Below, in pieces: positions 7,081 through 19,464 of a stretch of 32,000 nucleotides of DNA. The stretch comes from Alkanindiges illinoisensis DSM 15370 (GTDB lineage Bacteria > Pseudomonadota > Gammaproteobacteria > Pseudomonadales > Moraxellaceae): assembly GCF_000619845.1 (NCBI RefSeq), contig NZ_JHUX01000004.1, positions 150,001 through 182,000 on the forward strand. The letters are read 5' to 3'. How positions within the stretch are numbered: position 1 is the first letter of the stretch; each line of letters starts with the position of its first letter. Under the pieces are notes generated by a model that made no database searches, was not told where the DNA came from, and worked only from the letters and a program-made list of their open reading frames with translations. The translations under genes and the position numbers were made by a program.

Positions 7081-7364
7081 CGGTTTATGGTTGTCATGGG
7101 ATATCTTGAATCTAAAGGCTTGAATACCAGTTTTGGCCAGACTCGTATTTAAGGTTGATACAGCTTTGTCACGTAGCAGCGTTTCAGGTAGCCATGTGCG
7201 CGGTAATCTAGGTAATAGGGTTTCTAATTTAAATTAATTTGGTAAAAGGCACAATTCGCTCAAATTATATACAACAAAAATGGTATGAAGCCTCTACAAT
7301 ACCCGCATATTTGCAGCCTTGGCCTGCCACAATCACTCATTATTATGAAAGCGGAACTGGATTT

Positions 7365-8381
7365 ATGAGCAGTACTACTGACAATCGTCCTATTGTATTA
7401 ACCGGTGACCGAACCACGGGACAACTTCATCTTGGACATTATGCTGGCTCATTAAAAACCCGTACCACGTTGCAGGATACGCATCATCAGTTTTTGCTGC
7501 TGGCTGATGCACAGGCCCTGACTGATAACTTTGATAACCCGGAAAAAGTGCAGCGTAATGTGCTGGAAGTGGCACTGGATTATCTGGCAGTGGGCATCGA
7601 CCCAACCAAAACCACTATTTTTGTGCAATCCTGCGTGCCTGCGCTGTCTGAGCTAACCATGCTGTACCTGAACTTTGTGACGGTAGCACGGCTGGAGCGC
7701 AACCCCACCATCAAGCAGGAAATTGTGCTGCGTGGTTTTGAGCGCGACATTCCGGCAGGCTTTTTGTGCTACCCGGTGGCACAGGCGGCGGATATTACCG
7801 CGTTTAAGGCCACGCTGGTGCCAGTGGGTGAAGACCAGATTCCCATGATTGAACAAACCAATGAAATTGCACGCCGTATTAACCGTCAGGTGGGACGGGA
7901 CATTTTGCCGGAATGCAAGGCCATGCTGTCCAACGTGGCGCGTCTGCCCGGTTTTGATGGCAAGGCCAAAATGAGCAAATCACTGGGCAATACCATAGTG
8001 TTGAATGCCAGTGATGATGACATCAAAAAAGCCGTCAATAAAATGTATACCGACCCGAACCATTTAAAAGTGAGTGATCCGGGACAGGTTGAAGGCAACG
8101 TGGTATTTACCTATCTGGATGCCTTTGATGAATTCCCTGAAGAAATTGCCGAGCTAAAAGCGCATTACCAGCGTGGTGGTTTGGGCGATTCAGTATTGAA
8201 AAAACGCCTGTATGAGCGACTGGTCGCCATGATTGCACCGATTCGCGAGCGCCGTAACCAGTTTGCCCAAGACCCGGCCTATGTGATGGATGTGCTGCGC
8301 GAAGGCACGCAAAAGGCACAGGTGGTCACCCAGCAAACGCTGGATGAAGTAAAAAATGCATTGGGCCTATTCCGGTTTTAA
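7365..8381 (+). CDS. trpS: Tryptophan--tRNA ligase
   Basis: Class I aaRS motifs HLGHY (HIGH) and KMSKS are present, along with the conserved VPVGEDQ block. I place the start at ATG 7365 (MSSTTDNRPIVLTGDRTTGQLHLGH, 338 aa). The track ORF starts at TTG 7239 and adds 42 residues with no homology. Confidence 0.9.
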   Translation: MSSTTDNRPIVLTGDRTTGQLHLGHYAGSLKTRTTLQDTHHQFLLLADAQALTDNFDNPEKVQRNVLEVALDYLAVGIDPTKTTIFVQSCVPALSELTMLYLNFVTVARLERNPTIKQEIVLRGFERDIPAGFLCYPVAQAADITAFKATLVPVGEDQIPMIEQTNEIARRINRQVGRDILPECKAMLSNVARLPGFDGKAKMSKSLGNTIVLNASDDDIKKAVNKMYTDPNHLKVSDPGQVEGNVVFTYLDAFDEFPEEIAELKAHYQRGGLGDSVLKKRLYERLVAMIAPIRERRNQFAQDPAYVMDVLREGTQKAQVVTQQTLDEVKNALGLFRF

Positions 8382-8409
8382 TTAACGCTGGATTGACCGC
8401 TATCATTTA

Positions 8410-8439
8410 GCCTTAAGTCATTGGCTTAAGGCTTTTTTA
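8410..8439 (+). terminator. Rho-independent terminator of trpS
   Basis: GCCTTAAG (8410-8417) / CTTAAGGC (8425-8432) form a perfect 8-bp stem with a 7-nt loop, followed by TTTTTTAT. Confidence 0.8.
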
Positions 8440-8508
8440 TGGGTTTTTGTCGGTGGACTTAATATCTTGAGCCGCCTCTAATACTTCCAGCTATACAAAT
8501 CATTATTG

Positions 8509-8524
8509 TTATGTTATAACATAA
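8509..8524. promoter_or_regulatory. Zur-box-like perfect palindrome upstream of the L36 paralogue
   Basis: TTATGTTATAACATAA is a perfect 16-bp palindrome 27 nt upstream of the ATG at 8551. It contains the TGTTAT/ATAACA half-sites of gammaproteobacterial Zur boxes. Its position over a likely -10 region (TATAAC/CATAAT) fits a repressor site. Confidence 0.55.
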
Positions 8525-8550
8525 TTAATGAATAAATTTGAGTATGCATC

Positions 8551-8676
8551 ATGCAGGTTTTATCTTCCTTAAAAAGTGCCAAAAAACGCCATGCAGATTG
8601 TCAGGTGGTTCGTCGCCGTGGCAAGCTTTATGTGATTTGCAAAAGTAACCCGCGTTTTAAGGCACGGCAGGGTTAA
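8551..8676 (+). CDS. ykgO: 50S ribosomal protein L36 paralogue, cysteine-poor (C-minus, YkgO type)
   Basis: 41-codon ORF that is too short for the supplied track: [41 protein letters not shown]. It closely matches E. coli YkgO as I recall it ([41 protein letters not shown]...). It lacks the CxxC pair of Zn-binding canonical L36. Confidence 0.85.
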
Positions 8677-8695
8677 AGCGTCAGTTGAAATGAGT

Positions 8696-8722
8696 AGCCC
8701 GCTTTTGAATACGGGCTGTTTG
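8696..8722 (+). terminator. Probable terminator of the L36 paralogue
   Basis: AGCCCG (8696-8701) / CGGGCT (8712-8717) form a 6-bp GC-rich stem with a 10-nt loop, followed by GTTTGAATTATT. Confidence 0.5.
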
Positions 8723-8765
8723 AATTATTGGTAATATAAAAACTAATCATTGCCAGATTTTGGAT

Positions 8766-10028
8766 TTAATGCCTAGGTTGCTTATCCAGTAGCTGCTTGT
8801 CCAGCGGCTGTTTATCGAGCTTTAGGGAAATCATCAGCATCACCAGCCCACCAATACTTAAGCCAACTCCTACCCATATTGGCGCAAGCCAGCCATAGCC
8901 AGCACTAATCACCATACTGCCCAGCCAGGCGCCCTGTGCATTGGCAATGTTAAAGGCTGAATGATTTAATGAAGCTGCCAGTGTTTGCGCCTGACCCGCC
9001 ACATCCATCAGCCGGGTTTGCAAAGCTGGCCCCAGTGCCATGCCGGTTGCACCCATTAAAAATAGCGCTATTAATGCACTGTAAAAATTTTGCATCATAA
9101 AAGGAGCAATGGCAAAAGCTGCAATCATGCTAAACACAATGCTGTATAGCGCTTTTTTCATGCCGCGATCAGCCAGCCAGCCGCCAACCAGACCGCCACT
9201 GACCATGCCTAGGCCCCACACGGCCAAGGCCACAGGCACATAGCGAATGCTGACCTGGGTATAATGGGTTAGCAAGGGTGACACAAAGGTATACACTGAA
9301 AATAATCCGCCAAAACCAATCGCGGCAATGCCCAGTGTTAGCCACATCTGGCGATTTTTTAAGCCTGCCAGTTCGGTTTGTATGCTGGCATCGGTAGCTA
9401 TGGCTATTTTGGGTAAGGTCACGGTAATGGCCAAAATGGTGAGTGCGCCAATTGCTGCGGCAAACACAAAGCCACTACGCCAGCCCAGATGCTGCCCCAG
9501 CCATGTGGCAAAGGGTACGCCAATCACGGTAGCAATGGTCAGGCCCAGCATCACATGCGCCACAGCCTGTGCGCGTCTGGCAGGCCCGGCCAGCGTAGCA
9601 GCCACCAGCGCCGCCACACCAAAATAAGCACCATGCGGCAAACCAGCAATAAAGCGCGAAATCACCAGACTATTAAAATCCGGTGCAAAGGCGGTGGCCG
9701 CATTGCCCACGGTAAAGAACAGCATCAGTGCCAGCAGCAAACCCTTGCGTGGCACGCGAGCACACATAATGGCAATGACTGGCGCGCCAACTACAACCCC
9801 GAGCGCATAGGCGCTAATCATGTGGCCTGCTACCGGCACCGTAACGCCAACACCTTGTGCAATTTCCTGAATCAGCCCCATTGCCACAAATTCAGTAGTA
9901 CCAATACCAAAACCACCCAGCGCCAGTGCGACAATCACCCACAGCAATGAATAACCAGAACGGTTGGAAGCAGAATTCATCAGTTGGGACGAATTTAAAC
10001 TCGACATAAAAGACTCAACATCAGACAA
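8766..10028 (-). CDS. MFS transporter, DHA1 (AraJ/YdhP/NepI-like) subfamily
   Basis: 420 aa with 12 predicted TM helices. GIGTTEFVAMGLIQEIAQGVGV...AGHMISAYALGVVVGAP is typical of the AraJ/YdhP group. The C-terminal tail has an LDKQP/LDKQL/LDKQP mini-repeat. Alternative starts at Met8 and Met17. Confidence 0.8.
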   Translation of the reverse strand: MSDVESFMSSLNSSQLMNSASNRSGYSLLWVIVALALGGFGIGTTEFVAMGLIQEIAQGVGVTVPVAGHMISAYALGVVVGAPVIAIMCARVPRKGLLLALMLFFTVGNAATAFAPDFNSLVISRFIAGLPHGAYFGVAALVAATLAGPARRAQAVAHVMLGLTIATVIGVPFATWLGQHLGWRSGFVFAAAIGALTILAITVTLPKIAIATDASIQTELAGLKNRQMWLTLGIAAIGFGGLFSVYTFVSPLLTHYTQVSIRYVPVALAVWGLGMVSGGLVGGWLADRGMKKALYSIVFSMIAAFAIAPFMMQNFYSALIALFLMGATGMALGPALQTRLMDVAGQAQTLAASLNHSAFNIANAQGAWLGSMVISAGYGWLAPIWVGVGLSIGGLVMLMISLKLDKQPLDKQLLDKQPRH

Positions 10029-10385
10029 GTGATTGCAGGACTAACAGGTTTGTATTAAGGGCTTAATTATAAGGCAACTGCTGGTTTAGAATCCCTGCAT
10101 TGTTTAACCAAACTACATTTTTTAGCCTAGAAATTAAAAATAGTTAACATTAGAACTTTAATGGGCTTTAGCAGCCTTAAACCCTTGGCTGGAAAAATTA
10201 CGATAAAGTAGCGATTTCTTCAAAAATTCATCATTATTTTTCAGCGCTTGGGTATATGATGCGCGCATTCATTGCATGGTTTTACTGGCTAACTGATTTG
10301 CAGTATTTTCAATCCTGATGCTCCTGGTTTTTCATTCACCTGCGCTATTGCAGCCTGGTGATTTTTGTCTTTTTGAGTGTGTCTT

Positions 10386-12395
10386 ATGACGCGGCTTTTA
10401 TCTTTTTTGTCGGTGGTGCTGTGTATTGCTTTTATTGTGCCCGGCTATGCCAAACCCATCGCTTCAAACCAGACTTCCAATAAATCATCTGTTGCCATGC
10501 CTGCCGAACTGACCATTATCGGCTACCATGAAATTGCAGCCCCGCAGCAAGCCCTGATTCCCGATTATGCTGTTACTCCGCAACAGTTTGAACAACAGGT
10601 GATCTGGCTAAAAAACCATGGTTTCCAGTTTGTTAGCATGGATGATGTGCTGGCAGCGCGTGCGGGTAAAAAGCCACTTCCGGCCAAGGCTGTGCTGCTG
10701 AGCTTTGATGACGGCTATGCGTCGTTTTATCAGCATGCCTATCCCCTGATCAAACACTACAAAATTCCGGTTGTCCTGGCACTAGTTGGCAACTGGCTAT
10801 TGCCACCAGAAAATCAACCGGTGGATTTTGATGGAAAGACCATTAGCCGCAACAGCATGTTTAGCTGGGCCCAATTGCGCGAAATGAGTGATAGCGGTCT
10901 GGTGGAAATTGCCAGCCACACTTATGACCTGCACGATGGGATTCTGGCCAATCCACAGGGCAATATGCAGCCTGCCGTTACTGCGCGCCTGTATGACCCG
11001 GCTACCAGAACCTATGAACCGGATCAGGCTTACCGGATGCGCCTGTACAATGATTTTAAGACCAACAATGATTTATTCATTAAACATGGCTTGAAAAAAC
11101 CACGGATTATGGTCTGGCCATATGGTCGCTATAATAATGATGCGCTGGACTTAGCCAGCCAGTTGGGTATGCCTATTACCTTTACACTGGATGACGGGCC
11201 AAATCTGCCGTCCACCCCGCTCTCGGTGTTGCGCCGCATTCTGGTAGACAGCAGCATGACGCCTGCTGATCTGGGCCATGAAATCAGCATTCGCGAGCAG
11301 CAGCTCACGGACAACAACCGTGCCCAGAAAATCATGCATGTGGATCTGGACTATATTTATGATCCAGGCCCGGAGCAACAGGAACGCAATCTGGGCCATT
11401 TGCTGGACCGGATTGCCGCCATGCATGTCAATACGGTTTACCTGCAAGCGTTTTCTGACCCAGATGCCAATGGCTCAGCCGATATGGTGTATTTTCCCAA
11501 CCGGCATTTGCCTATGCGGGCAGACCTGTTTAACCGGGTAGCGTGGCAAATCCGTACCCGCACACAAGTAAAACGCGTGTATGCGTGGATGCCTTTGCTG
11601 GCATGGGAACTGCCGGACAGTGACCCAGCCTCAAAAGATATTGTGGTCACGGAACAAGGCAAAAACAGCCAGCATTTGAATATGGGCTATCATCGCCTGT
11701 CGCCCTTTTCGGCACTGGCCCGGCAAACCATTAGCGAGATTTATCAGGATCTGGCCAAGTCTGTCCCGTTTGATGGCATCCTGTTTCATGATGATGTCAC
11801 CATGTCGGACTATGAAGATGCCAGTCCCAAGGCCAAAGCACAGTACCAAGCCTGGGGCCTGCCTGATGACTTGAGTGCCATTCGGGGTAATGATGCCCTG
11901 CTGCAAAAATGGACCGCGCTCAAAACCCAGACACTGGATGAATTTGCCCTGTCACTGGCGGCAGAGGTGCGCAAGCAGCAACCCTGCCTGCTGACGGCAC
12001 GCAACCTGTATGCACAGGTGGCCTTAAAAGCCTATGCAGAAAACTGGTATGCACAATCACTGGAAAACTCCCTGCGCGATTATGACTTTACTGCCATTAT
12101 GGCCATGCCTTATATGGAACAGGTCAAAGACCCTGATGCGTTTTATAGCAGTATCGTCAAGCGGGTCAAAAGCTATCCGCAAGGCCTGAAAAAAACTGTA
12201 TTTGAACTTCAGGCTACTGACTGGCGTAGCAATACACCTGTGTCCACGGACGAAATCGCCAACACCATTAGCAAGCTGTATTTACAAGGGGTACGCCACG
12301 TTGGCTATTATCCGGATGACCCGATCAAGGATCACCCGGACCCAGCCATTCTGCGCCGGGTATTTGACAGTAAAACCAGTGCAGCCCTGCCCTAA
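10386..12395 (+). CDS. pgaB: Poly-beta-1,6-N-acetyl-D-glucosamine N-deacetylase PgaB
   Basis: Collinear similarity to E. coli PgaB (672 aa) as I recall it. CE4 deacetylase blocks: KAVLLSFDDGYASFY, LVEIASHTYDLH, VWPYG. C-terminal glycoside-hydrolase-like domain: IMHVDLDYIYD, NTVYLQAFSDPD, FPNRHLPMRADLFNRVAWQ, YAWMPLLAW, HRLSPF, GILFHDD, SDYEDAS, TAIMAMPYME, GYYPDD. The start is ATG 10386 or GTG 10377, and TGA lies in frame at 10374. N-terminal signal peptide present. Confidence 0.93.
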   Translation: MTRLLSFLSVVLCIAFIVPGYAKPIASNQTSNKSSVAMPAELTIIGYHEIAAPQQALIPDYAVTPQQFEQQVIWLKNHGFQFVSMDDVLAARAGKKPLPAKAVLLSFDDGYASFYQHAYPLIKHYKIPVVLALVGNWLLPPENQPVDFDGKTISRNSMFSWAQLREMSDSGLVEIASHTYDLHDGILANPQGNMQPAVTARLYDPATRTYEPDQAYRMRLYNDFKTNNDLFIKHGLKKPRIMVWPYGRYNNDALDLASQLGMPITFTLDDGPNLPSTPLSVLRRILVDSSMTPADLGHEISIREQQLTDNNRAQKIMHVDLDYIYDPGPEQQERNLGHLLDRIAAMHVNTVYLQAFSDPDANGSADMVYFPNRHLPMRADLFNRVAWQIRTRTQVKRVYAWMPLLAWELPDSDPASKDIVVTEQGKNSQHLNMGYHRLSPFSALARQTISEIYQDLAKSVPFDGILFHDDVTMSDYEDASPKAKAQYQAWGLPDDLSAIRGNDALLQKWTALKTQTLDEFALSLAAEVRKQQPCLLTARNLYAQVALKAYAENWYAQSLENSLRDYDFTAIMAMPYMEQVKDPDAFYSSIVKRVKSYPQGLKKTVFELQATDWRSNTPVSTDEIANTISKLYLQGVRHVGYYPDDPIKDHPDPAILRRVFDSKTSAALP

Positions 12396-12408
12396 AAGGT
12401 AATGTCTA

Positions 12409-13677
12409 ATGCTTAGTCACCCTGAACACGTATGGCAGTTGCTGCTGGGTTTTGTATTTTTTTACCCTTTGTTCATGTCTTATTTATGGATGATGGGCGC
12501 GCTGTTGTTTTATCGACGCGAACGCAAGGAACCGCCATACCAGACGCCACCTGTACTGGAACAGCCCCCTGCGGTTAGTGTGCTGATTCCCTGCTTTAAC
12601 GAAGGTGATAATGCCGAAGAAACCATCCGGCATGCAATGGCGCTGCAATATCCGGATTTTGAAGTGATTGCCATTAATGATGGCAGCACCGACAATACCG
12701 CCGACGTGCTCAACCGGCTGGCAGGCCAATATGATAGGCTCAAGGTGGTGCATCTGGCGCGTAATCAGGGTAAAGCGATGGCACTCCAGGCTGGCAGTTT
12801 GCTGGCCAGAGCCGAGTACCTGATTGGTATTGATGGTGATGCCCTGCTTGACCCGCATGCAGTGCACTGGATGGTGCGCCATTTTGTCAAAGATCCAACC
12901 GTTGCGGCGGTAACTGGCAATCCGCGTATCCGCACCCGCACCACCCTGCTGGGCAAGATTCAGGTCGGTGAATTTTCGTCCATTGTGGGCATGATCAAGC
13001 GGGCGCAGCGCAGTTTTGGTCGCCTGTTTACCGTGTCAGGAGTGATTACTGCCTTTCGCAAAAGTGCCGTGCATGACGTGGGCTACTGGTCGGCTGATAT
13101 GCTGACCGAAGATATTGATATCACCTGGAAACTGCAACGCGCAGGCTGGGATATCCAGTTTGAACCCAATGCACTGGTTTGGATTCTCATGCCGGAAACC
13201 CTGAACGGCCTGTGGAAACAGCGCCTGCGCTGGGCTATGGGTGGTGCGCAGGTACTGCTGAAAAATCTGGATGTCTTTTTCAAGCCACAACAGAACTTCC
13301 TGTGGCCACTGATGCTGGAATTGTGCCTGTCGCTGGTGTGGTCATACCTGATGCTGCTGGTGGCTGTGCTGTGGTTACTGAGCTTTATCCTGCCGGTACA
13401 CACCTTGCCGATAGTAGGCTCGCCATTTGTGCCGCATGGTACGGGTGTATTTTTAGGGGCAACCTGCCTATTGCAATTTGCCTTAAGCAAATGGATGGAC
13501 AGCCGTTATGAGTCCCGCCTTGGTCGCAACTATTACTGGATGATCTGGTATCCACTGGTATTCTGGATGATTAATATTTGCTCTACCATTGTGGCCTTTC
13601 CTAAAGTATTATTACGCCGCGAAGGTAAACGGGCACGCTGGGTTAGCCCAGACCGTGGTGTTAGACCCCCTCAATAA
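12409..13677 (+). CDS. pgaC: PNAG synthase PgaC (family 2 glycosyltransferase), copy 1
   Basis: 422 aa starting 13 nt after the pgaB stop. GT2 and PgaC blocks: VLIPCFNE, AINDGSTD, NQGKA, IDGDALLD, VTGNPRIRTR, GKIQVGEFSSI, FTVSGVI, TEDIDITWKLQ, LWKQRLRWAMGG, and the C-terminal RARWVSPDRG. Confidence 0.93.
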   Translation: MLSHPEHVWQLLLGFVFFYPLFMSYLWMMGALLFYRRERKEPPYQTPPVLEQPPAVSVLIPCFNEGDNAEETIRHAMALQYPDFEVIAINDGSTDNTADVLNRLAGQYDRLKVVHLARNQGKAMALQAGSLLARAEYLIGIDGDALLDPHAVHWMVRHFVKDPTVAAVTGNPRIRTRTTLLGKIQVGEFSSIVGMIKRAQRSFGRLFTVSGVITAFRKSAVHDVGYWSADMLTEDIDITWKLQRAGWDIQFEPNALVWILMPETLNGLWKQRLRWAMGGAQVLLKNLDVFFKPQQNFLWPLMLELCLSLVWSYLMLLVAVLWLLSFILPVHTLPIVGSPFVPHGTGVFLGATCLLQFALSKWMDSRYESRLGRNYYWMIWYPLVFWMINICSTIVAFPKVLLRREGKRARWVSPDRGVRPPQ

Positions 13678-13683
13678 ATCATA

Positions 13684-14100
13684 GTGAATAGCATGAATCA
13701 CGCATTAATTATCGATGCCCGCCAGCAACTCCGCTGGCATCAGCGTTTATTTTCCGATACTTCAACCGCCATGATGTGGGGCATCTGGTTGCTGCTCTGG
13801 CGTCCTGTGCTGATTTTTACCTGGGTGATGAGTGTCAAGCATCCGGCGGCATTGTTGCATTTCCTCAACATGGCCAGTTTTGAGGATTATATGACCGCGC
13901 TGTTTTCCGCAGTGGCTGCCTTACTGTTGTGGAGTACGCTTCCCTCCCACAAGGTTAAAAATCCGGTAGCACGCACGCTTGACGACTATGCCAGTCACTT
14001 TGGTATCCAGCCTGAACAGATTGAAACAGGCCGCGCGCAAACCATTTGTGTGGTACACCATGATGATCAGGGCAGAATTATCCGCATTGAATCGACCTGA
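13684..14100 (+). CDS. pgaD: PNAG biosynthesis protein PgaD, copy 1
   Basis: 138 aa (E. coli PgaD is 137 aa), located immediately after pgaC. It has two TM helices, and the C-terminal segment YASHFGIQPEQIETGRAQTICVVHHDDQGRIIRI parallels E. coli YAESLAIPDE...MSVHFTSQGQIKMV. Start is GTG 13684 or ATG 13693. Confidence 0.75.
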   Translation: MNSMNHALIIDARQQLRWHQRLFSDTSTAMMWGIWLLLWRPVLIFTWVMSVKHPAALLHFLNMASFEDYMTALFSAVAALLLWSTLPSHKVKNPVARTLDDYASHFGIQPEQIETGRAQTICVVHHDDQGRIIRIEST

Positions 14101-14115
14101 TGCTTAAATAAACGT

Positions 14116-14146
14116 GTCCTGCTCTGCATGGGCAAGGCAGGATTTT
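14116..14146. terminator. Convergent-operon terminator between pgaD and pgaD'
   Basis: TCCTGC (14117-14122) / GCAGGA (14137-14142) form a stem with a 14-nt loop, followed by TTTT on the plus strand and CACGTTTATTT on the minus strand. A second, mutually exclusive hairpin, AAGGCAG (14134-14140) / CTGCCTT (14154-14160), overlaps its right arm. Confidence 0.5.
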
Positions 14147-14172
14147 AGTAAAGCTGCCTTATAGTTGCGCAT

Positions 14173-14712
14173 TCAGCTTTTCTTATCCGGTTGGGCTGCC
14201 TGCTCTAGCACAGGGAAAGCCATATTGACAATCTTGCCCTGTCGGTCATAAAAAAATAAATTGATCTGTGCGCCCTGTGCCTGCTCAACCATATGGGTTT
14301 CAAGCTCATAAAAGTGTGCCATGTCACTGGGCTGGACGTCCGGCATGGCATGGCGGCGCTCTTTATTATAAAAGCGCAGAATATTATACGACGCCCATGC
14401 CAGCAGCAGCAGTCCCAGAATCATGATCACCGCCACCAGACTGGTTAAATGCTGGGTAAAACCATGTTCATAATCATGAATAATGTACTGGTCAAACCGA
14501 TGCCAGCCAAACCACCATGCCAGCAGGCTCAGCAAGGGAATAAAGAGATACAGCCATACCATCGATCCTGCGGCTGCAAGCATGCCAAAAACGCCGCGTT
14601 GCGACCAGCTTTGCAAATCCGGACGGTCAATAAATGCTGGCAACACCACGTTTTCATGTTTAAAGTTTTTATCCAGAATCGTTTCAATGCCCATCTTGTT
14701 CTCACTGCCCAT
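14173..14712 (-). CDS. PgaD-like small 2-TM protein, copy 2 (N-terminally extended)
   Basis: 179 aa, directly downstream of pgaC'. It has two TM helices. The post-TM2 segment WASYNILRFYNKERR resembles E. coli PgaD WALYNKLRFQKQ, and the C-terminal AQINLFFYDRQGKIVNM resembles E. coli MSVHFTSQGQIKMV. A GGTGAGAG Shine-Dalgarno-like sequence precedes ATG 14712. Confidence 0.7.
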   Translation of the reverse strand: MGSENKMGIETILDKNFKHENVVLPAFIDRPDLQSWSQRGVFGMLAAAGSMVWLYLFIPLLSLLAWWFGWHRFDQYIIHDYEHGFTQHLTSLVAVIMILGLLLLAWASYNILRFYNKERRHAMPDVQPSDMAHFYELETHMVEQAQGAQINLFFYDRQGKIVNMAFPVLEQAAQPDKKS

Positions 14713-14763
14713 TTTTCTCTCACCTAAGCCAATTAAACGTTAAAATTTCAGTAAGTGGTAAGG

Positions 14764-16041
14764 TTAAACACTAATGCCACGGTCCGGACTTTCCCAACGG
14801 GCACGTTTTTTTGAGCGCTTGAGCAGGGCTTTGGGTAAGGCCACCACGGTGGTTAACATGGACAAAATCCAGTACAGCAATGGATACCAGATCACCCAGA
14901 TATAGTTGCGTAATATCCGGCCCTGATCATAGCGGCGGTCCATCCACAGGCTGATAAAAAACTGCACCAGACAGGTTACGCCCAGAAAAAGCCCATAGAC
15001 CTGCGGCAAAATGCTGGCCACATACCAGCTTTCCGGCAGGTCAACCACCAGGCCGCTAAAGTACAAAATAAAAATAATCAGCATGGCATACGACCAGCCC
15101 ACGCTAAGCAGGTATTCAAAGGCCACGCCCCAGAAACGGCGCGACTTCCAGTGAAACAGCGCCTTGCCATATTTAAGCAACACCTCAACCCCACCCTGTG
15201 CCCAGCGTAAGCGCTGGCTCCATAAGCCCTTCAGCGTTTCCGGCATATACAGGTAACACAATGCCTGCGCTTCGTAGCGGATATCCCAGTGATCCAGTTG
15301 CAGGCGCCATGAAATATCAATGTCCTCGGTCACAATGTTTTCACTCCAGTAGCCTACCCGGTGCAATGCGGTTTTACGGAATCCGGCAATGGCACCCGAT
15401 ACGGTAAAAATACGGCCATAGGTACGCTGTGCCCGCTTGATCAAGCCAATAATGGACGAAAATTCGCCAACCTGAATCTTGCCAAGCAAACTGGAACGGT
15501 TAATGATGCGTGGATTACCAGTCACTGCACCAACCCGTGGGCCACTTAGCAGGTGATCCATCATCCAGTGCACGGTATAGGGATGCAGCAAGGCGTCGCC
15601 ATCAATACACACCAGATATTCATGCTGACTAACCAGTGCGCCTGCCCGTAATGCAAATGCCTTGCCCTGATTATTGGTCAAATGCACGATCCGGATACGA
15701 GAGTCCTGTGCGGCCAGTTGCTCCACAATTTGCTCGGTCTGGTCGGTGCTACCATCATTAATCACAATGACTTCAATGTTGGGATAACGGGTGGCCAGTG
15801 CAAAACGGATGGTATCTGTAACATGCTGCTCTTCGTTATAGCAGGGAATTAAAATGCTACAGCCCGGCGCAGTCTGGTCAAATTTCGGCAAGGCAGGACG
15901 ATGCAGTTCGCGTCGCAAATAAAACCAGATGCCACCAATGATCCACAGCCAGGCCATCAGCAAGGGATAGTAAAACGCAAAGGCAAATAGCGCATTGCGC
16001 ACCGATAAATTTTGCAGCCAGTTCAGGGCATCAATAAACAT
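14764..16041 (-). CDS. PNAG-synthase-like GT2 PgaC, copy 2
   Basis: 425 aa with the same motif set as copy 1: ILIPCYNE, VINDGSTD, NQGKA, IDGDALLH, VTGNPRIINR, GKIQVGEFSSI, FTVSGAI, TEDIDISWRLQ, LWSQRLRWAQGG, RARWESPDRG. About 60% identical to copy 1 over the catalytic core by my hand alignment. Confidence 0.9.
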   Translation of the reverse strand: MFIDALNWLQNLSVRNALFAFAFYYPLLMAWLWIIGGIWFYLRRELHRPALPKFDQTAPGCSILIPCYNEEQHVTDTIRFALATRYPNIEVIVINDGSTDQTEQIVEQLAAQDSRIRIVHLTNNQGKAFALRAGALVSQHEYLVCIDGDALLHPYTVHWMMDHLLSGPRVGAVTGNPRIINRSSLLGKIQVGEFSSIIGLIKRAQRTYGRIFTVSGAIAGFRKTALHRVGYWSENIVTEDIDISWRLQLDHWDIRYEAQALCYLYMPETLKGLWSQRLRWAQGGVEVLLKYGKALFHWKSRRFWGVAFEYLLSVGWSYAMLIIFILYFSGLVVDLPESWYVASILPQVYGLFLGVTCLVQFFISLWMDRRYDQGRILRNYIWVIWYPLLYWILSMLTTVVALPKALLKRSKKRARWESPDRGISV

Positions 16042-16080
16042 GCTTCATACTCGATAAATGGTTTTTATTGTGGTTATTCA

Positions 16081-19000
16081 TTAAAAAGCGCCACTCAGCC
16101 CCAGCACCCCATAGGTACGCTGTTCACGGTTGCCGTCGTAAACCTGACTGCCCCAGCCAATGCCATAATTGATTTGCCAGCGCCGGTTCAACTGCCACTC
16201 ATGCTGATACAGCGCATTCACATAGGCTTTACCGGAAAACCCGGCTTGCTGGTTAATGCCCGTACCCAGTTCAAAATGCTGATTAAAGGACTGCTGTTCA
16301 TCACCGCGCCAGGTCATCCAGTCATGATCCAGATTGATGCCATAGCTCAGGTTATGATCCGGGTTAAAATAACTGCCACCGGGCTGGCTGTTGTTTTCAT
16401 AAAACGCTTCCAGCCCACCCGTGGTAATGTGCTTTTCATTGGCAAACAAGCGCTGGTTGAAAGCCCCCGACACCGACTGTCTGAGATTGCCATCGCTAAT
16501 GTCCAGTGCCTGATAGCTAAACGACGCACTGCGTGATTCATGCTGTCGCCAGTCCACGCCCGCCTGATAGCCATTGGCATCCAGGCCTGCTTCCAGCGCC
16601 CGTAGCGGAATTTGTGCCGAGTTATGCTCATAACCCAGCCGGTAGCGCCAATGGTCATTGAGCCAGTGTCCCCAGCCTGCACTAAAGCCGGTTTTCTGGG
16701 AATTTGAGCTTTGCCCGGACTGACTTTGGCCAGAGTGATTATCCAGTTGCTGATTGACTAAAACCCAGGCATTTTTGCGATCCTGCTGCCACTCTGCCCC
16801 AAGGCCCAAGCGCTGGTCACGCTGATGCGCTGGTTCAAGGTCAGCCCAGCGATCCTGATGATCCACAAAAATTCGCCAGCGATTGTCCAGCCACGGACTA
16901 TTAAGCCGGGTATGCCACTCACGGTCATGGCTCCCATTCACACTGCTTAAGGTTCGCGCATCAGCCTTGCTGTGTGCAATTTTAAGGTCACTTTGCAGGG
17001 TGACACGCTGGCGATCCTGCCATTCCTGCTGTGCCTTAATCACACTGGAACTTTCTGGTGTTTTTTGGCTTGCCTTCTCCAGCGCATCCTGCCAGCCTGC
17101 ATAGTCCTGCAAGTCACGGGCATTGCTGGCATGGGTTAAATCCAGTGTCACACTGTGCGGCGCATTTTCATACGCCTGCTGTACCACCTGTTCAGCGGCC
17201 TGCGGCAAACCACGCCAGTTCAAAATGGTGGCATAATCATTGGCCAAGCTGGTATTGTCAGGGTTATCCTGAACCAGTTGCTGTAGCTTTGGCACAGCAA
17301 TGTCCAGCTGGTTACGGTAAGCTGCATCCAGTGCCAGCATTTGCTCCACACGCACCCGGGTCTTGCGGGCTTCCAGATCCGTCATACTGGCTGCCATAGT
17401 AGGAAATTGCTGGTCCAGTTTGACCAGTACATCACTGGCCTGCTGGTATTTTTCCTGCTCAATCAAAGCATAGTAATCGGCAATAAACAGTTCAGCATCC
17501 GGCTGTGGCAGATTTTCCAGCAAATACTGATAAATCTCATGCGCCTGCACGGGCTGTTTGGTGGCCAGATAGGCATCAGCCACGGCACGCTTGGCATAGG
17601 GCTGTAACTGGAATTGCTCACTCACCGACAGTTGCTGGTACTCGGCAATCAGCTCCGGCATGCGCTCACGCACCCGCAAGGCATACAGGTAATCATTAAA
17701 CAGCGGTGCATATTCATTCTGGTTTTTATTGAGCTGATCCAGTGCCTGTCGTAGGGCCAACAGGTTTTGGTCTATGAGCTGAGCGGCCTGCTGGTATTTG
17801 CCCTGTAGTTCCAGCTGATCCTTTTGTTTGAGCGCTGCTTGCATGTTCAAACTCAGTATATCTGCCTTAACCAGCCAAACCGCACTTGCTGGAAAAACTT
17901 CGGGATGCTGTTGTGCCAACTGGTAAGCTTCGGTAACCCGATCCAGATTTCTTAGTGCAACAAACTGCTGCTCCAGAGCCAGTCGCTGCTGCGGATTCAA
18001 GGCCAGTGCCTGCTGGCTGGAAACTACTGCCTGTCCTGAAAGACCGGCCAAACGCTGGATATACGCCAGTTGTGCATATTGGTCGGCATTGAGCGTGCCC
18101 TGCTGTAATGAGCCAAGCAGTTGCTGCACCACTGCGGTTTGCCCGGCTTCAGCGGCCAATGTGGCGTAATACCAAGGATCAAATGGTGCTTGCCCTGTAG
18201 GCTGCTGTTCAGATTGGTTATATATTTGCCGGGCCAATTCAAATGCCGCCTGAAACTGTTGCTGGTCACGCAGGGCATCTAACCAGGATTTGTACGCATA
18301 GGCAGGAATATCATTTATTTTGGTGGTTAATTTTTCTTGCTGCGCCAGTCTTACAAGTTCAGCATTGCGGCCAGCTAGTCGCAGTACCACCATTAAATCA
18401 GCAGTTGTCTTTAAATCATCAGGATTTTGCTGATGTAATTGGTAAAGCTGGCTAATGGCTGGTTCAAACTGGCGCTGGCTAGCCAGCTTGACCGCCTGCT
18501 GGCCTAGAAGTAACCGCTTTTGGGTGAGTGCCAGTTTATGGCTTGGCTGTATTGCCAGTGACTGATCCGCATAGGTCAGACCCTGCCCTGCATCACCCAG
18601 TAAACGATAAATATAGGCCAGTTGTGCATACTGATCTGCTGTTTTCAAAGTAGCCGGCTGAATACGATCAAGCGTTGCACGGGCATCAGTGCTTTGACCC
18701 GCTTCAGCAGCCAGCGTCGCATAATAGAGTACATCAAGCTGTGGTGCTTGATTGGACAATGACTGATGTGCCATGATCTGCTGTGCCACCTGATAGGCAA
18801 GCTTTGGTTGCTGGCTATCGCGCAAACCTCCAATCCAGGCCATTCTAACATAGGCAGGCAACTGTAAAGCCTGCTGTTGTAACTGGCCGGTTTGGGTTAA
18901 CTGTGCAATTGCCTGATTTTTGCCAGCCAGCCTTAACAGCACAATCAGGTCAGCCGTTACTTTCAGGTCTTTCGGCGCTTGGCGGTGCAGTTGCTGCAAG

Positions 19001-19194
19001 GTGGCAATGGCTTGCGGAAGTTTACCCTGCTTTGCCAGTTGCACCGCCTGTTCGCGCTGCTGGCTGATGCTTAATGCAGTGCCTGTCGGTTTGGCATACA
19101 GTGATGAAGATAAGGTAAAACAGCCTATTTCCAGAAAAAATAAACAGCCCAGATAAAGTTTGTTTTTTAATGGGTCAGGGTAAAATGTCCCCAT
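16081..19194 (-). CDS. pgaA: PNAG export porin PgaA (TPR domain plus C-terminal beta-barrel), enlarged
   Basis: About 1037 aa from ATG 19194; the track uses TTG 19218 (1045 aa). Signal peptide ...CFTLSSSLYA/KP. The N-terminal half is long and Q/A/L-rich, TPR-like. The C-terminal roughly 300 aa show alternating beta-strand patterns collinear with the E. coli PgaA barrel (SYFNPDHN..., YDGNREQRTYGVLGLSGAF, terminal Phe). Confidence 0.85.
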   Translation of the reverse strand: MGTFYPDPLKNKLYLGCLFFLEIGCFTLSSSLYAKPTGTALSISQQREQAVQLAKQGKLPQAIATLQQLHRQAPKDLKVTADLIVLLRLAGKNQAIAQLTQTGQLQQQALQLPAYVRMAWIGGLRDSQQPKLAYQVAQQIMAHQSLSNQAPQLDVLYYATLAAEAGQSTDARATLDRIQPATLKTADQYAQLAYIYRLLGDAGQGLTYADQSLAIQPSHKLALTQKRLLLGQQAVKLASQRQFEPAISQLYQLHQQNPDDLKTTADLMVVLRLAGRNAELVRLAQQEKLTTKINDIPAYAYKSWLDALRDQQQFQAAFELARQIYNQSEQQPTGQAPFDPWYYATLAAEAGQTAVVQQLLGSLQQGTLNADQYAQLAYIQRLAGLSGQAVVSSQQALALNPQQRLALEQQFVALRNLDRVTEAYQLAQQHPEVFPASAVWLVKADILSLNMQAALKQKDQLELQGKYQQAAQLIDQNLLALRQALDQLNKNQNEYAPLFNDYLYALRVRERMPELIAEYQQLSVSEQFQLQPYAKRAVADAYLATKQPVQAHEIYQYLLENLPQPDAELFIADYYALIEQEKYQQASDVLVKLDQQFPTMAASMTDLEARKTRVRVEQMLALDAAYRNQLDIAVPKLQQLVQDNPDNTSLANDYATILNWRGLPQAAEQVVQQAYENAPHSVTLDLTHASNARDLQDYAGWQDALEKASQKTPESSSVIKAQQEWQDRQRVTLQSDLKIAHSKADARTLSSVNGSHDREWHTRLNSPWLDNRWRIFVDHQDRWADLEPAHQRDQRLGLGAEWQQDRKNAWVLVNQQLDNHSGQSQSGQSSNSQKTGFSAGWGHWLNDHWRYRLGYEHNSAQIPLRALEAGLDANGYQAGVDWRQHESRSASFSYQALDISDGNLRQSVSGAFNQRLFANEKHITTGGLEAFYENNSQPGGSYFNPDHNLSYGINLDHDWMTWRGDEQQSFNQHFELGTGINQQAGFSGKAYVNALYQHEWQLNRRWQINYGIGWGSQVYDGNREQRTYGVLGLSGAF
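17959..19050 (-). repeat. Intragenic tandem duplication of a module of about 184 aa in the PgaA TPR domain
   Basis: Residues about 57-239 and 240-420 (track numbering) align at a constant offset of 184-185. Examples: DLKVTADLIVLLRLAGKN / DLKTTADLMVVLRLAGRN; YYATLAAEAGQ in both; ADQYAQLAYIYRL / ADQYAQLAYIQRL; ends LAIQPSHKLAL / LALNPQQRLAL. Confidence 0.8.
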
Positions 19195-19464
19195 AATTAT
19201 TCCAAAAATAAAGAGCAAAAATCAAAGCTGGCGTTTTAAATGGCCGGCATACGTTGTGTGGCCTATTGTGTATTTTTATTTTTAACCGTCAGTGTTTAAA
19301 TGATTCCAGATTGGCAAATTCGCGTAATGGAACCTGAAAAAACGTAATTCCATTGAGTAATTGGTATTAATTCAACTAATTTATTCGCTTTTGTGTAATC
19401 CATTTCTGACAGAGAAAATCGTTCATTTCCTACAGGTGTAATAGACAATACTTGCTGATACCTA

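Follow-up and report, generated by a model that had tools for sequence, protein, structure and literature searches.

Poly-N-acetylglucosamine (PNAG) is a major biofilm and immune-evasion polymer, and Acinetobacter baumannii, which carries genes for it at two loci, is a priority pathogen. Here we describe the PNAG (pga) locus of Alkanindiges illinoisensis DSM 15370, in which a pgaB-pgaC-pgaD gene set converges on a pgaA-pgaC'-pgaD' set. It was studied in a stretch of 32,000 nucleotides (contig NZ_JHUX01000004.1, positions 150,001 to 182,000), referred to below as the window and numbered from its first nucleotide. The PNAG machineries of Escherichia coli (pgaABCD), Yersinia (hmsHFRS) and Bordetella (bpsABCD) are each encoded by one co-directional operon. 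In E. coli, the polymer is synthesized by PgaC and PgaD, its export depends critically on PgaB, and the tetratricopeptide repeat (TPR) domain of PgaA binds PgaB and raises both of its activities (PMC5933820, PMC9384988).

In A. baumannii, the deacetylase AbPgaB1 (A1S_0938) is encoded in a porin-less pgaBCD locus (A1S_0938-0940) and AbPgaB2 (A1S_2161) in a pgaABCD operon, and deletion mutants of both deacetylase genes have been studied (PMC9935895). AbPgaB1 is functional as a deacetylase and has a part in biofilm formation, and its deletion lowers biofilm to 58% and abolishes the cell-attached exopolysaccharide (PMC9935895). The two loci are also noted in PMC10117892 and appear as a "partial duplication" in PMC7112194; dual loci of the A. 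baumannii type are thus already in the literature, with Bundalovic-Torma et al. among the sources, and the lack of precedent implied by the initial annotation of the window does not hold. What the porin-less pgaBCD does, and how it relates to the canonical operon, is poorly defined.

The Alkanindiges locus contains the same two module types as A. baumannii, again with no porin gene in the second. In A. baumannii, however, ~1.4 Mb separate the loci and pgaB is still part of the canonical operon, giving two deacetylases, whereas in the window the two modules adjoin tail to tail and, with the canonical pgaB deleted, the AbPgaB1-type deacetylase is the only one left. Compared with pgaABCD of E. 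coli (and its Yersinia and Bordetella counterparts), the locus encodes the same four protein types with the same domains and catalytic motifs, and the same biochemistry is expected, but it is not one co-directional operon and it holds two synthase pairs; in addition, its PgaB is devoid of an E. coli-type lipobox cysteine and its PgaA is longer by an additional, duplicated TPR module. Genomes with more than one synthase pair for PNAG are likewise known from tandem or whole-operon duplications (Methylovora versatilis 301, PMC7112194; metagenome-assembled genome (MAG) REEB393, locus L011), but there the copies are complete and co-directional A-B-C-D operons with no division of labor between them. 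A metagenomic locus, L089 (JGI 3300062547), shares the same interval, the convergent placement of the modules and the long PgaA, yet still holds a canonical pgaB' (674 aa) between pgaA and pgaC'. In the literature searched, we found no account of two such modules lying tail to tail with the canonical deacetylase lost, or of the seven-, six-, four- and three-gene series reported below. The components, the biochemistry and the two-module background are known, and the locus represents an intermediate stage of evolution and reveals neither new chemistry nor a new machinery class.

Gene content of the convergent locus

We confirmed six open reading frames (ORFs) at the positions claimed by the initial annotation, pgaB-pgaC-pgaD on the plus strand facing pgaA-pgaC'-pgaD' on the minus strand. 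All six proteins scored above the curated NCBIfam equivalog cutoffs (321.9 bits for PgaB, 422.3 for PgaC, 31.45 for PgaD and 366.65 for PgaA), in agreement with Pfam. The plus-strand genes are of the BCD-module type: pgaB (10386..12395; TIGR03938, 844.6 bits), encoding an AbPgaB1-like protein with the Pfam domains Polysacc_deac_1 and GHL13, pgaC (12409..13677; TIGR03937, 613.5 bits), encoding a family 2 glycosyltransferase (GT2) synthase, and pgaD (13684..14100; TIGR03940, 102.9 bits; PF13994), encoding its small membrane partner. On the minus strand, pgaA (16081..19194; TIGR03939, 481.8 bits) encodes an outer-membrane porin with a lengthened TPR domain and a PgaA_barrel domain (PF21197) at residues 743-1034; it is followed by the canonical-operon type GT2 synthase gene pgaC' (14764..16041; TIGR03937, 582.1 bits) and by pgaD' (14173..14712; TIGR03940, 87.3 bits; PF13994), whose product, a small membrane partner of the same canonical type, has two hydrophobic segments. 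Alternative starts exist for pgaB (GTG at 10377) and pgaA (TTG at 19218); the starts at 10386 and 19194 agree with an independent gene prediction made for the Logan assembly of sequencing run SRR3313971. Instead of forming a single co-directional pgaA-B-C-D operon, the genes are split into two convergent units, with pgaB apart from pgaA. The counts originally given for the window (two PgaC, two PgaD, one PgaA and one PgaB) are correct, the six ORFs are free of frameshifts as claimed, and the stated 72 bp between the two arms is the exact distance between the stop codons of pgaD and pgaD'.

The sole PNAG deacetylase/hydrolase gene of the window is pgaB. Its product aligned to E. coli PgaB (PDB 4F9D) over residues 62-651 and has the two-domain make-up of a CE4 deacetylase joined to a GH153 hydrolase, catalytic residues included, with the FDDGY and ASHT..H motifs of the deacetylase and the FHDD motif of the hydrolase conserved. 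Lipoprotein status, considered as a contrast between PgaB types, proved uninformative, as neither type has an E. coli-like lipobox in Moraxellaceae. Residues 412-418 of PgaB (SDPASKD; window 11619-11639) conserve the Ser and Asp that correspond to S411 and D413 of AbPgaB1 (TDPVSKD), which are reported to be phosphorylated and regulatory.

PgaC and PgaC' both keep the DGD, TED and QRLRW motifs and the RARW.SPDRG tail, as the initial annotation had stated. The two synthases are 53% identical by BLASTP and 53.8% by global alignment, and identity rises to 61.8% (84 mismatches in 220 columns) in the catalytic core, taken from IPCFNE to shortly after QRLRW, so that the earlier hand-aligned figure of ~60% was accurate. 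Each synthase gene is followed by its own partner, pgaD lying 6 bp and pgaD' 51 bp downstream; the two PgaD proteins, said to be barely alignable, are 21% identical (E = 7e-4).

The pairing of the two arms, whose recurrence had been raised as a question, is not confined to this assembly. The Logan assembly of SRR3313971 encodes six pga proteins 100% identical to those of the window in the order sucAB-lpd-sucCD-pgaA-C'-D' facing D-C-B, and the six-gene convergent layout is present in Alkanindiges illinoisensis NFYY 23406 (L009) and in MAG PMG_235 (L006) as well. The D-to-D' junction recurs in two JGI metagenome contigs, there in a seven-gene version. The closest named proteins are from Alkanindiges illinoisensis (96-97% identity), and the composite locus is flanked by a trpS-like gene on one side and sucCD on the other.

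Two anciently diverged modules

In Acinetobacter guerrae, a canonical pgaA-B-C-D operon directly follows sucCD and a separate, stand-alone porin-less pgaB-C-D lies elsewhere in the genome; the A-C'-D' arm of the window occupies the position of this canonical operon beside sucCD. The B, C and D proteins of the window are 59%, 79% and 46% identical to those of the porin-less A. guerrae locus and 30%, 51% and 23% identical to those of the canonical operon, whereas C' and D' are 65% and 29% identical to the canonical proteins and 53% and 21% identical to the porin-less ones, a pattern in which each PgaD remains paired with its own PgaC type. Comparison with A. baumannii gave 66% identity of PgaB to the AbPgaB1 type against 34% to the canonical type, 78% identity of PgaC to the BCD-locus PgaC, and 66% identity of PgaC' to the PgaC of the pgaABCD operon. 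The AbPgaB1 peptide TDPVSKDLVVTEQAK, known from the literature, was located at residue 407 of the BCD-locus PgaB of A. baumannii; with the 66% against 34% identity, this identifies the only deacetylase of the window as an orthologue of AbPgaB1.

Bootstrapped neighbor-joining trees rooted on E. coli gave a BCD-type PgaC clade and a BCD-type PgaB clade, each with 100% bootstrap and outside all sampled canonical gammaproteobacterial sequences, and placed PgaC' within the canonical Moraxellaceae PgaC clade (98% bootstrap). C and C' fall into separate clades (100% bootstrap each), which settles a check suggested at the outset and upholds the view of the synthases as old paralogues rather than products of a recent duplication. 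The description of the locus as half-duplicated, on the other hand, has to be dropped: the B-C-D arm is the orthologue of the separate porin-less pgaBCD of Acinetobacter and not a copy of the neighboring arm. A recent local duplication is ruled out by this orthology together with the separate 100%-bootstrap clades.

The porin-less pgaBCD order, with no pgaA in the same transcription unit, was found in the window (10386-14100), A. guerrae, Acinetobacter baylyi and A. baumannii, the chromosome-sized records of the last holding both module types at the ~1.4 Mb distance. In Acinetobacter, pgaBCD follows YaeQ-FKBP genes; here it lies between a major facilitator superfamily (MFS)/trpS-like gene pair and the canonical module. 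Taken as a whole, the locus is almost certainly a composite of two old PNAG modules carried by several Moraxellaceae.

A series of architectures and the lost canonical pgaB

We compared the content of the trpS-to-sucCD interval among relatives and found four states. Seven genes are present in L089, where B-C-D faces D'-C'-B'-A followed by sucDC, with the same junction in L090; six in the window, L001, L006 and L009, where B-C-D faces D'-C'-A; four in Alkanindiges hydrocarboniclasticus H1 (L007) and MAG OH_PBrB_6 (L008), where A-C'-D' faces a lone BCD-type pgaB; and three in L087 and L088, where B-C-D faces sucDC. Outside this clade, all 76 loci fetched (L010-L085) have the canonical A-B-C-D order where genes were detected. 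The seven-gene L089 probably represents the state that preceded this deletion of pgaB'. The six genes form a stable intermediate, from which relatives would have been further reduced either to A-C'-D' plus B or to B-C-D alone.

The site of the missing gene is marked by a 16-codon mini-ORF, MNNHNKNHLSSMKHVY, which bridges pgaA and pgaC' (16031..16081, minus strand). Its start overlaps the pgaA stop codon (TAATG), with which the 39-bp pgaA-pgaC' spacer opens, and its end lies 11 nt within pgaC'; the same stop/start overlap joins pgaA to pgaB' in L089. The mini-ORF is open in L009, in L007 and, with an in-frame 3-nt indel, in L006, and in L008 it extends to 31 codons with a signal-peptide-like (PgaB-like) start, MNTNKKNIMLSIFLLLK. 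From these features we infer that it is probably the 5' stump of the deleted canonical pgaB; being common to the whole clade, it would thus point to a single ancestral deletion, and it may have been kept for translational coupling of pgaC' to pgaA. A tblastn search of the window with the L089 PgaB' for a remnant of canonical pgaB matched only the paralogous pgaB (39% over 420 aa).

Relics of a second deletion were found in the 246-bp gap between pgaD' and the lone pgaB of L007, where two weak stretches of similarity to the second pgaC, from its 5' and 3' ends, are arranged as in the intact gene (72% over 50 nt, E = 1e-3; 77% over 43 nt, E = 5e-3). The four-gene state therefore derives from the six-gene state. 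We also searched with the 674-aa canonical PgaB' of L089, which retrieved close metagenomic relatives (100%, 71% and 70% identity) and then Aquirhabdus (45%) but no Alkanindiges-named protein, an indirect result in that complete Alkanindiges genomes were not scanned; it speaks against the presence, in the sequenced Alkanindiges, of a hidden canonical pgaB or of another complete operon.

Selection on both arms and the duplicated TPR module of PgaA

The ratio of nonsynonymous to synonymous substitution rates (dN/dS) was calculated by the Nei-Gojobori method for the window against L009 (dS 0.17-0.50) and L006 (dS 0.86-1.46). It was 0.09 and 0.13, respectively, for pgaA, 0.05 and 0.026 for pgaC', 0.14 and 0.08 for pgaD', 0.02 and 0.13 for pgaD, 0.04 and 0.04 for pgaC, and 0.055 and 0.08 for pgaB. 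For pgaB, the comparison of L007 with the window gave 0.115, and that with L008 gave no ratio owing to saturated dS. Across the six genes and the comparisons, the values span 0.02-0.16, indicating purifying selection and ruling out decay of one arm.

PgaA is ~1040 aa long instead of ~810, owing to a tandem duplication of a ~184-aa N-terminal TPR module (48% identity, E = 5e-43). The two copies span residues 57-238 and 241-422 of the 1045-aa ORF (window 17929-19050, minus strand). The duplication is also present in Alkanindiges illinoisensis, PMG_235, Alkanindiges hydrocarboniclasticus, L089 and Aquirhabdus; L008, Acinetobacter, E. coli and the other sampled sequences lack it. A tie between this duplication and the loss of pgaB was considered and ruled out, the duplication being found in L089 and Aquirhabdus, both of which retain pgaB, but not in L008, from which the canonical pgaB is missing.

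A proposed shared export route

The explanation that we regard as probable for the locus as a whole is that of a composite in which the canonical pgaB has been lost and a single PgaB-PgaA route is shared. Module 1 is the canonical pgaABCD beside sucCD, from which pgaB has been cleanly deleted to leave pgaA-pgaC'-pgaD', and module 2 is the porin-less pgaB-pgaC-pgaD, the orthologue of A1S_0938-0940, placed tail to tail against it. In the mechanism that we propose, the two modules work together. Two inner-membrane PgaC-PgaD pairs, each with its co-evolved PgaD, would both pass polymer to the single PgaB of module 2, and the polymer would leave through the single PgaA of module 1, acting as TPR scaffold and porin. 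The PgaB of module 2 would already have been fit to work with the canonical PgaA, since its locus is without a porin gene in every genome examined and, in the two species for which a whole genome or chromosome record was examined (A. guerrae and A. baumannii), a canonical pgaA is present as well. The canonical pgaB would thereby have become redundant, allowing its loss. That PgaB serves the canonical synthase and porin is suggested because L007 and L008, in which the second C-D pair has been lost, still have the BCD-type pgaB next to A-C'-D'. We consider this mechanism, with two synthase pairs using one PgaB and one PgaA, to be rather likely on the comparative evidence; it corresponds to the first of two options put forward in the initial annotation, which the four-gene relatives support.

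The second of those options held that A-C'-D' is a deacetylase-independent exporter of a fully acetylated or otherwise distinct polymer, with PgaB serving only its own C-D pair. The location of pgaB on the other strand in a separate transcription unit, the clean loss of the canonical pgaB and the tight linkage of pgaA to pgaC' through the bridging ORF would all fit such a system. We nevertheless judge it very improbable and found no support for it: an intact BCD-type pgaB beside A-C'-D' in L007 and L008, which have no second C-D, is unexpected if PgaB works for C-D only, C' is unremarkable among the canonical PgaC proteins with which it clusters, and in E. coli PgaB is critical for export and is bound and stimulated by PgaA. 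The possibility that two separate loci were wrongly joined at the 72-bp gap is negligible. Convergent paralogous junctions can in principle mislead assemblers, but no evidence of this was found; the identical junction is present in the Logan assembly, two other genomes and the two JGI metagenome contigs, and paralogues with 53% protein identity share too little DNA identity to collapse. Misassembly at 14100-14173 is ruled out by the same recurrence in independent assemblies and other genomes.

Transitional redundancy deserves more weight, although we think it unlikely. Under this explanation, both synthase pairs make the same polymer with no distinct roles, and the six genes are a slow step towards four or three. 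It agrees with the loss in sister lineages of the second C-D (L007 and L008) or of the whole A-C'-D' arm (L087 and L088), with the decayed pgaC remnants in the L007 gap, and with the likeness of all motifs in C and C'. It is harder to reconcile with the strong purifying selection on all six genes over dS of ~0.2-1.5 in three six-gene lineages, with the long-term retention implied by the joint presence of the modules in A. guerrae and A. baumannii and by the module-2 locus in A. baylyi, and with the fidelity of each PgaD to its own PgaC type. Several points nonetheless weigh against the shared route and the history that we propose for it. The loss of either synthase pair in some lineage also fits plain redundancy. 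L087 and L088 hold only B-C-D at the locus and, if they have no pgaA elsewhere, module 2 may not need PgaA. The docking of the module-2 PgaB on PgaA is an assumption, this PgaB being only 30-39% identical to canonical PgaBs. The order of events relies on parsimony over few genomes and on neighbor-joining trees with moderate within-clade support (73-85%), and the search with PgaB' does not strictly exclude a further pgaA or pgaB elsewhere in Alkanindiges genomes.

A broader version, which we judge slightly less likely than not, is that the porin-less pgaBCD has always exported through the canonical PgaA throughout Moraxellaceae, A. baumannii included, its PgaB docking on the TPR domain despite only ~30-39% identity to canonical PgaB. 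If this is correct, the seven-, six-, four- and three-gene series amounts to a natural genetic experiment in which the deacetylases are interchangeable and one porin suffices for two synthases, and the conserved mini-ORF would have been retained to couple pgaC' translation to pgaA. The main value of the locus lies in its being a natural complementation experiment for the interplay of the two pga loci of A. baumannii, which carries the same two modules. The Alkanindiges series provides comparative genetic evidence that the second-locus deacetylase can replace the canonical one and work with the canonical porin, and shows that either synthase pair is dispensable. For A. baumannii, it predicts porin sharing and cross-complementation between PgaB1 and PgaB2. 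More generally, it offers a clean case of reciprocal pruning of redundant paralogous operons.

Flanking features and additional observations

The gap between the two arms contains a candidate bidirectional terminator hairpin (14116..14143), whose stem of 8+3 bp precedes UUUU on the plus strand; the identical hairpin sequence is present in L009. Its fold z-scores (-0.99 and -1.10) do not distinguish it from shuffled sequences, and a consensus terminator scan gave no call for it. The gap had initially been called a terminator gap; its length stands, as noted above, and its function as a terminator is a reasonable guess only. Promoter and terminator scans of the window returned no more hits than in shuffled sequence, no riboswitch or other known RNA element matched Rfam at gathering thresholds anywhere in the window, and no transposase or integrase was seen among its annotated ORFs.

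The stretch that separates sucCD from the gene for a trpS-like class I tRNA synthetase (window 7239-10376, and its equivalents in L006, L087 and L089) is variable. The MFS transporter gene at 8766-10028 of the window is missing from L006 and L089, and the L089 interval carries genes for a thiolase, an AraC-type regulator and a fatty-acid desaturase.

Carriage of the BCD-type module by plasmids was considered and rejected. The close matches in the plasmid database were only A. baumannii records, 0.29-4.1 Mb in size, three of them chromosome-sized, and in the one record inspected (1.02 Mb, non-mobilizable) chromosomal-type genes flank the module, with no sign of a mobile carrier. The three chromosome-sized PLSDB entries, NZ_CP064203.1, NZ_CP077849.1 and NZ_CP104448.1 (3.7-4.1 Mb), served here as whole chromosomes; they are filed as plasmids and would distort plasmid statistics.

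Outside Moraxellaceae, a PgaC of the betaproteobacterium Pseudogulbenkiania sp. MAI-1 (P0216) is 80% identical to the BCD-type PgaC of the window and basal to that clade, a position pointing either to a cross-class horizontal transfer of the porin-less module or to a contaminated assembly. The canonical PgaB of Acinetobacter (608 aa in A. guerrae; L002, 8175-10001) is unusually short and has a very long branch compared with other canonical PgaBs; its divergence may have been faster where a second-locus PgaB is also present. Finally, the contig of MAG REEB393 (Gammaproteobacteria; L011, 1-11724) bears two tandem pgaABCD operons, the first pgaA being cut by the end of the locus, and one of its PgaC proteins groups with that of Aquirhabdus while the other branches separately.

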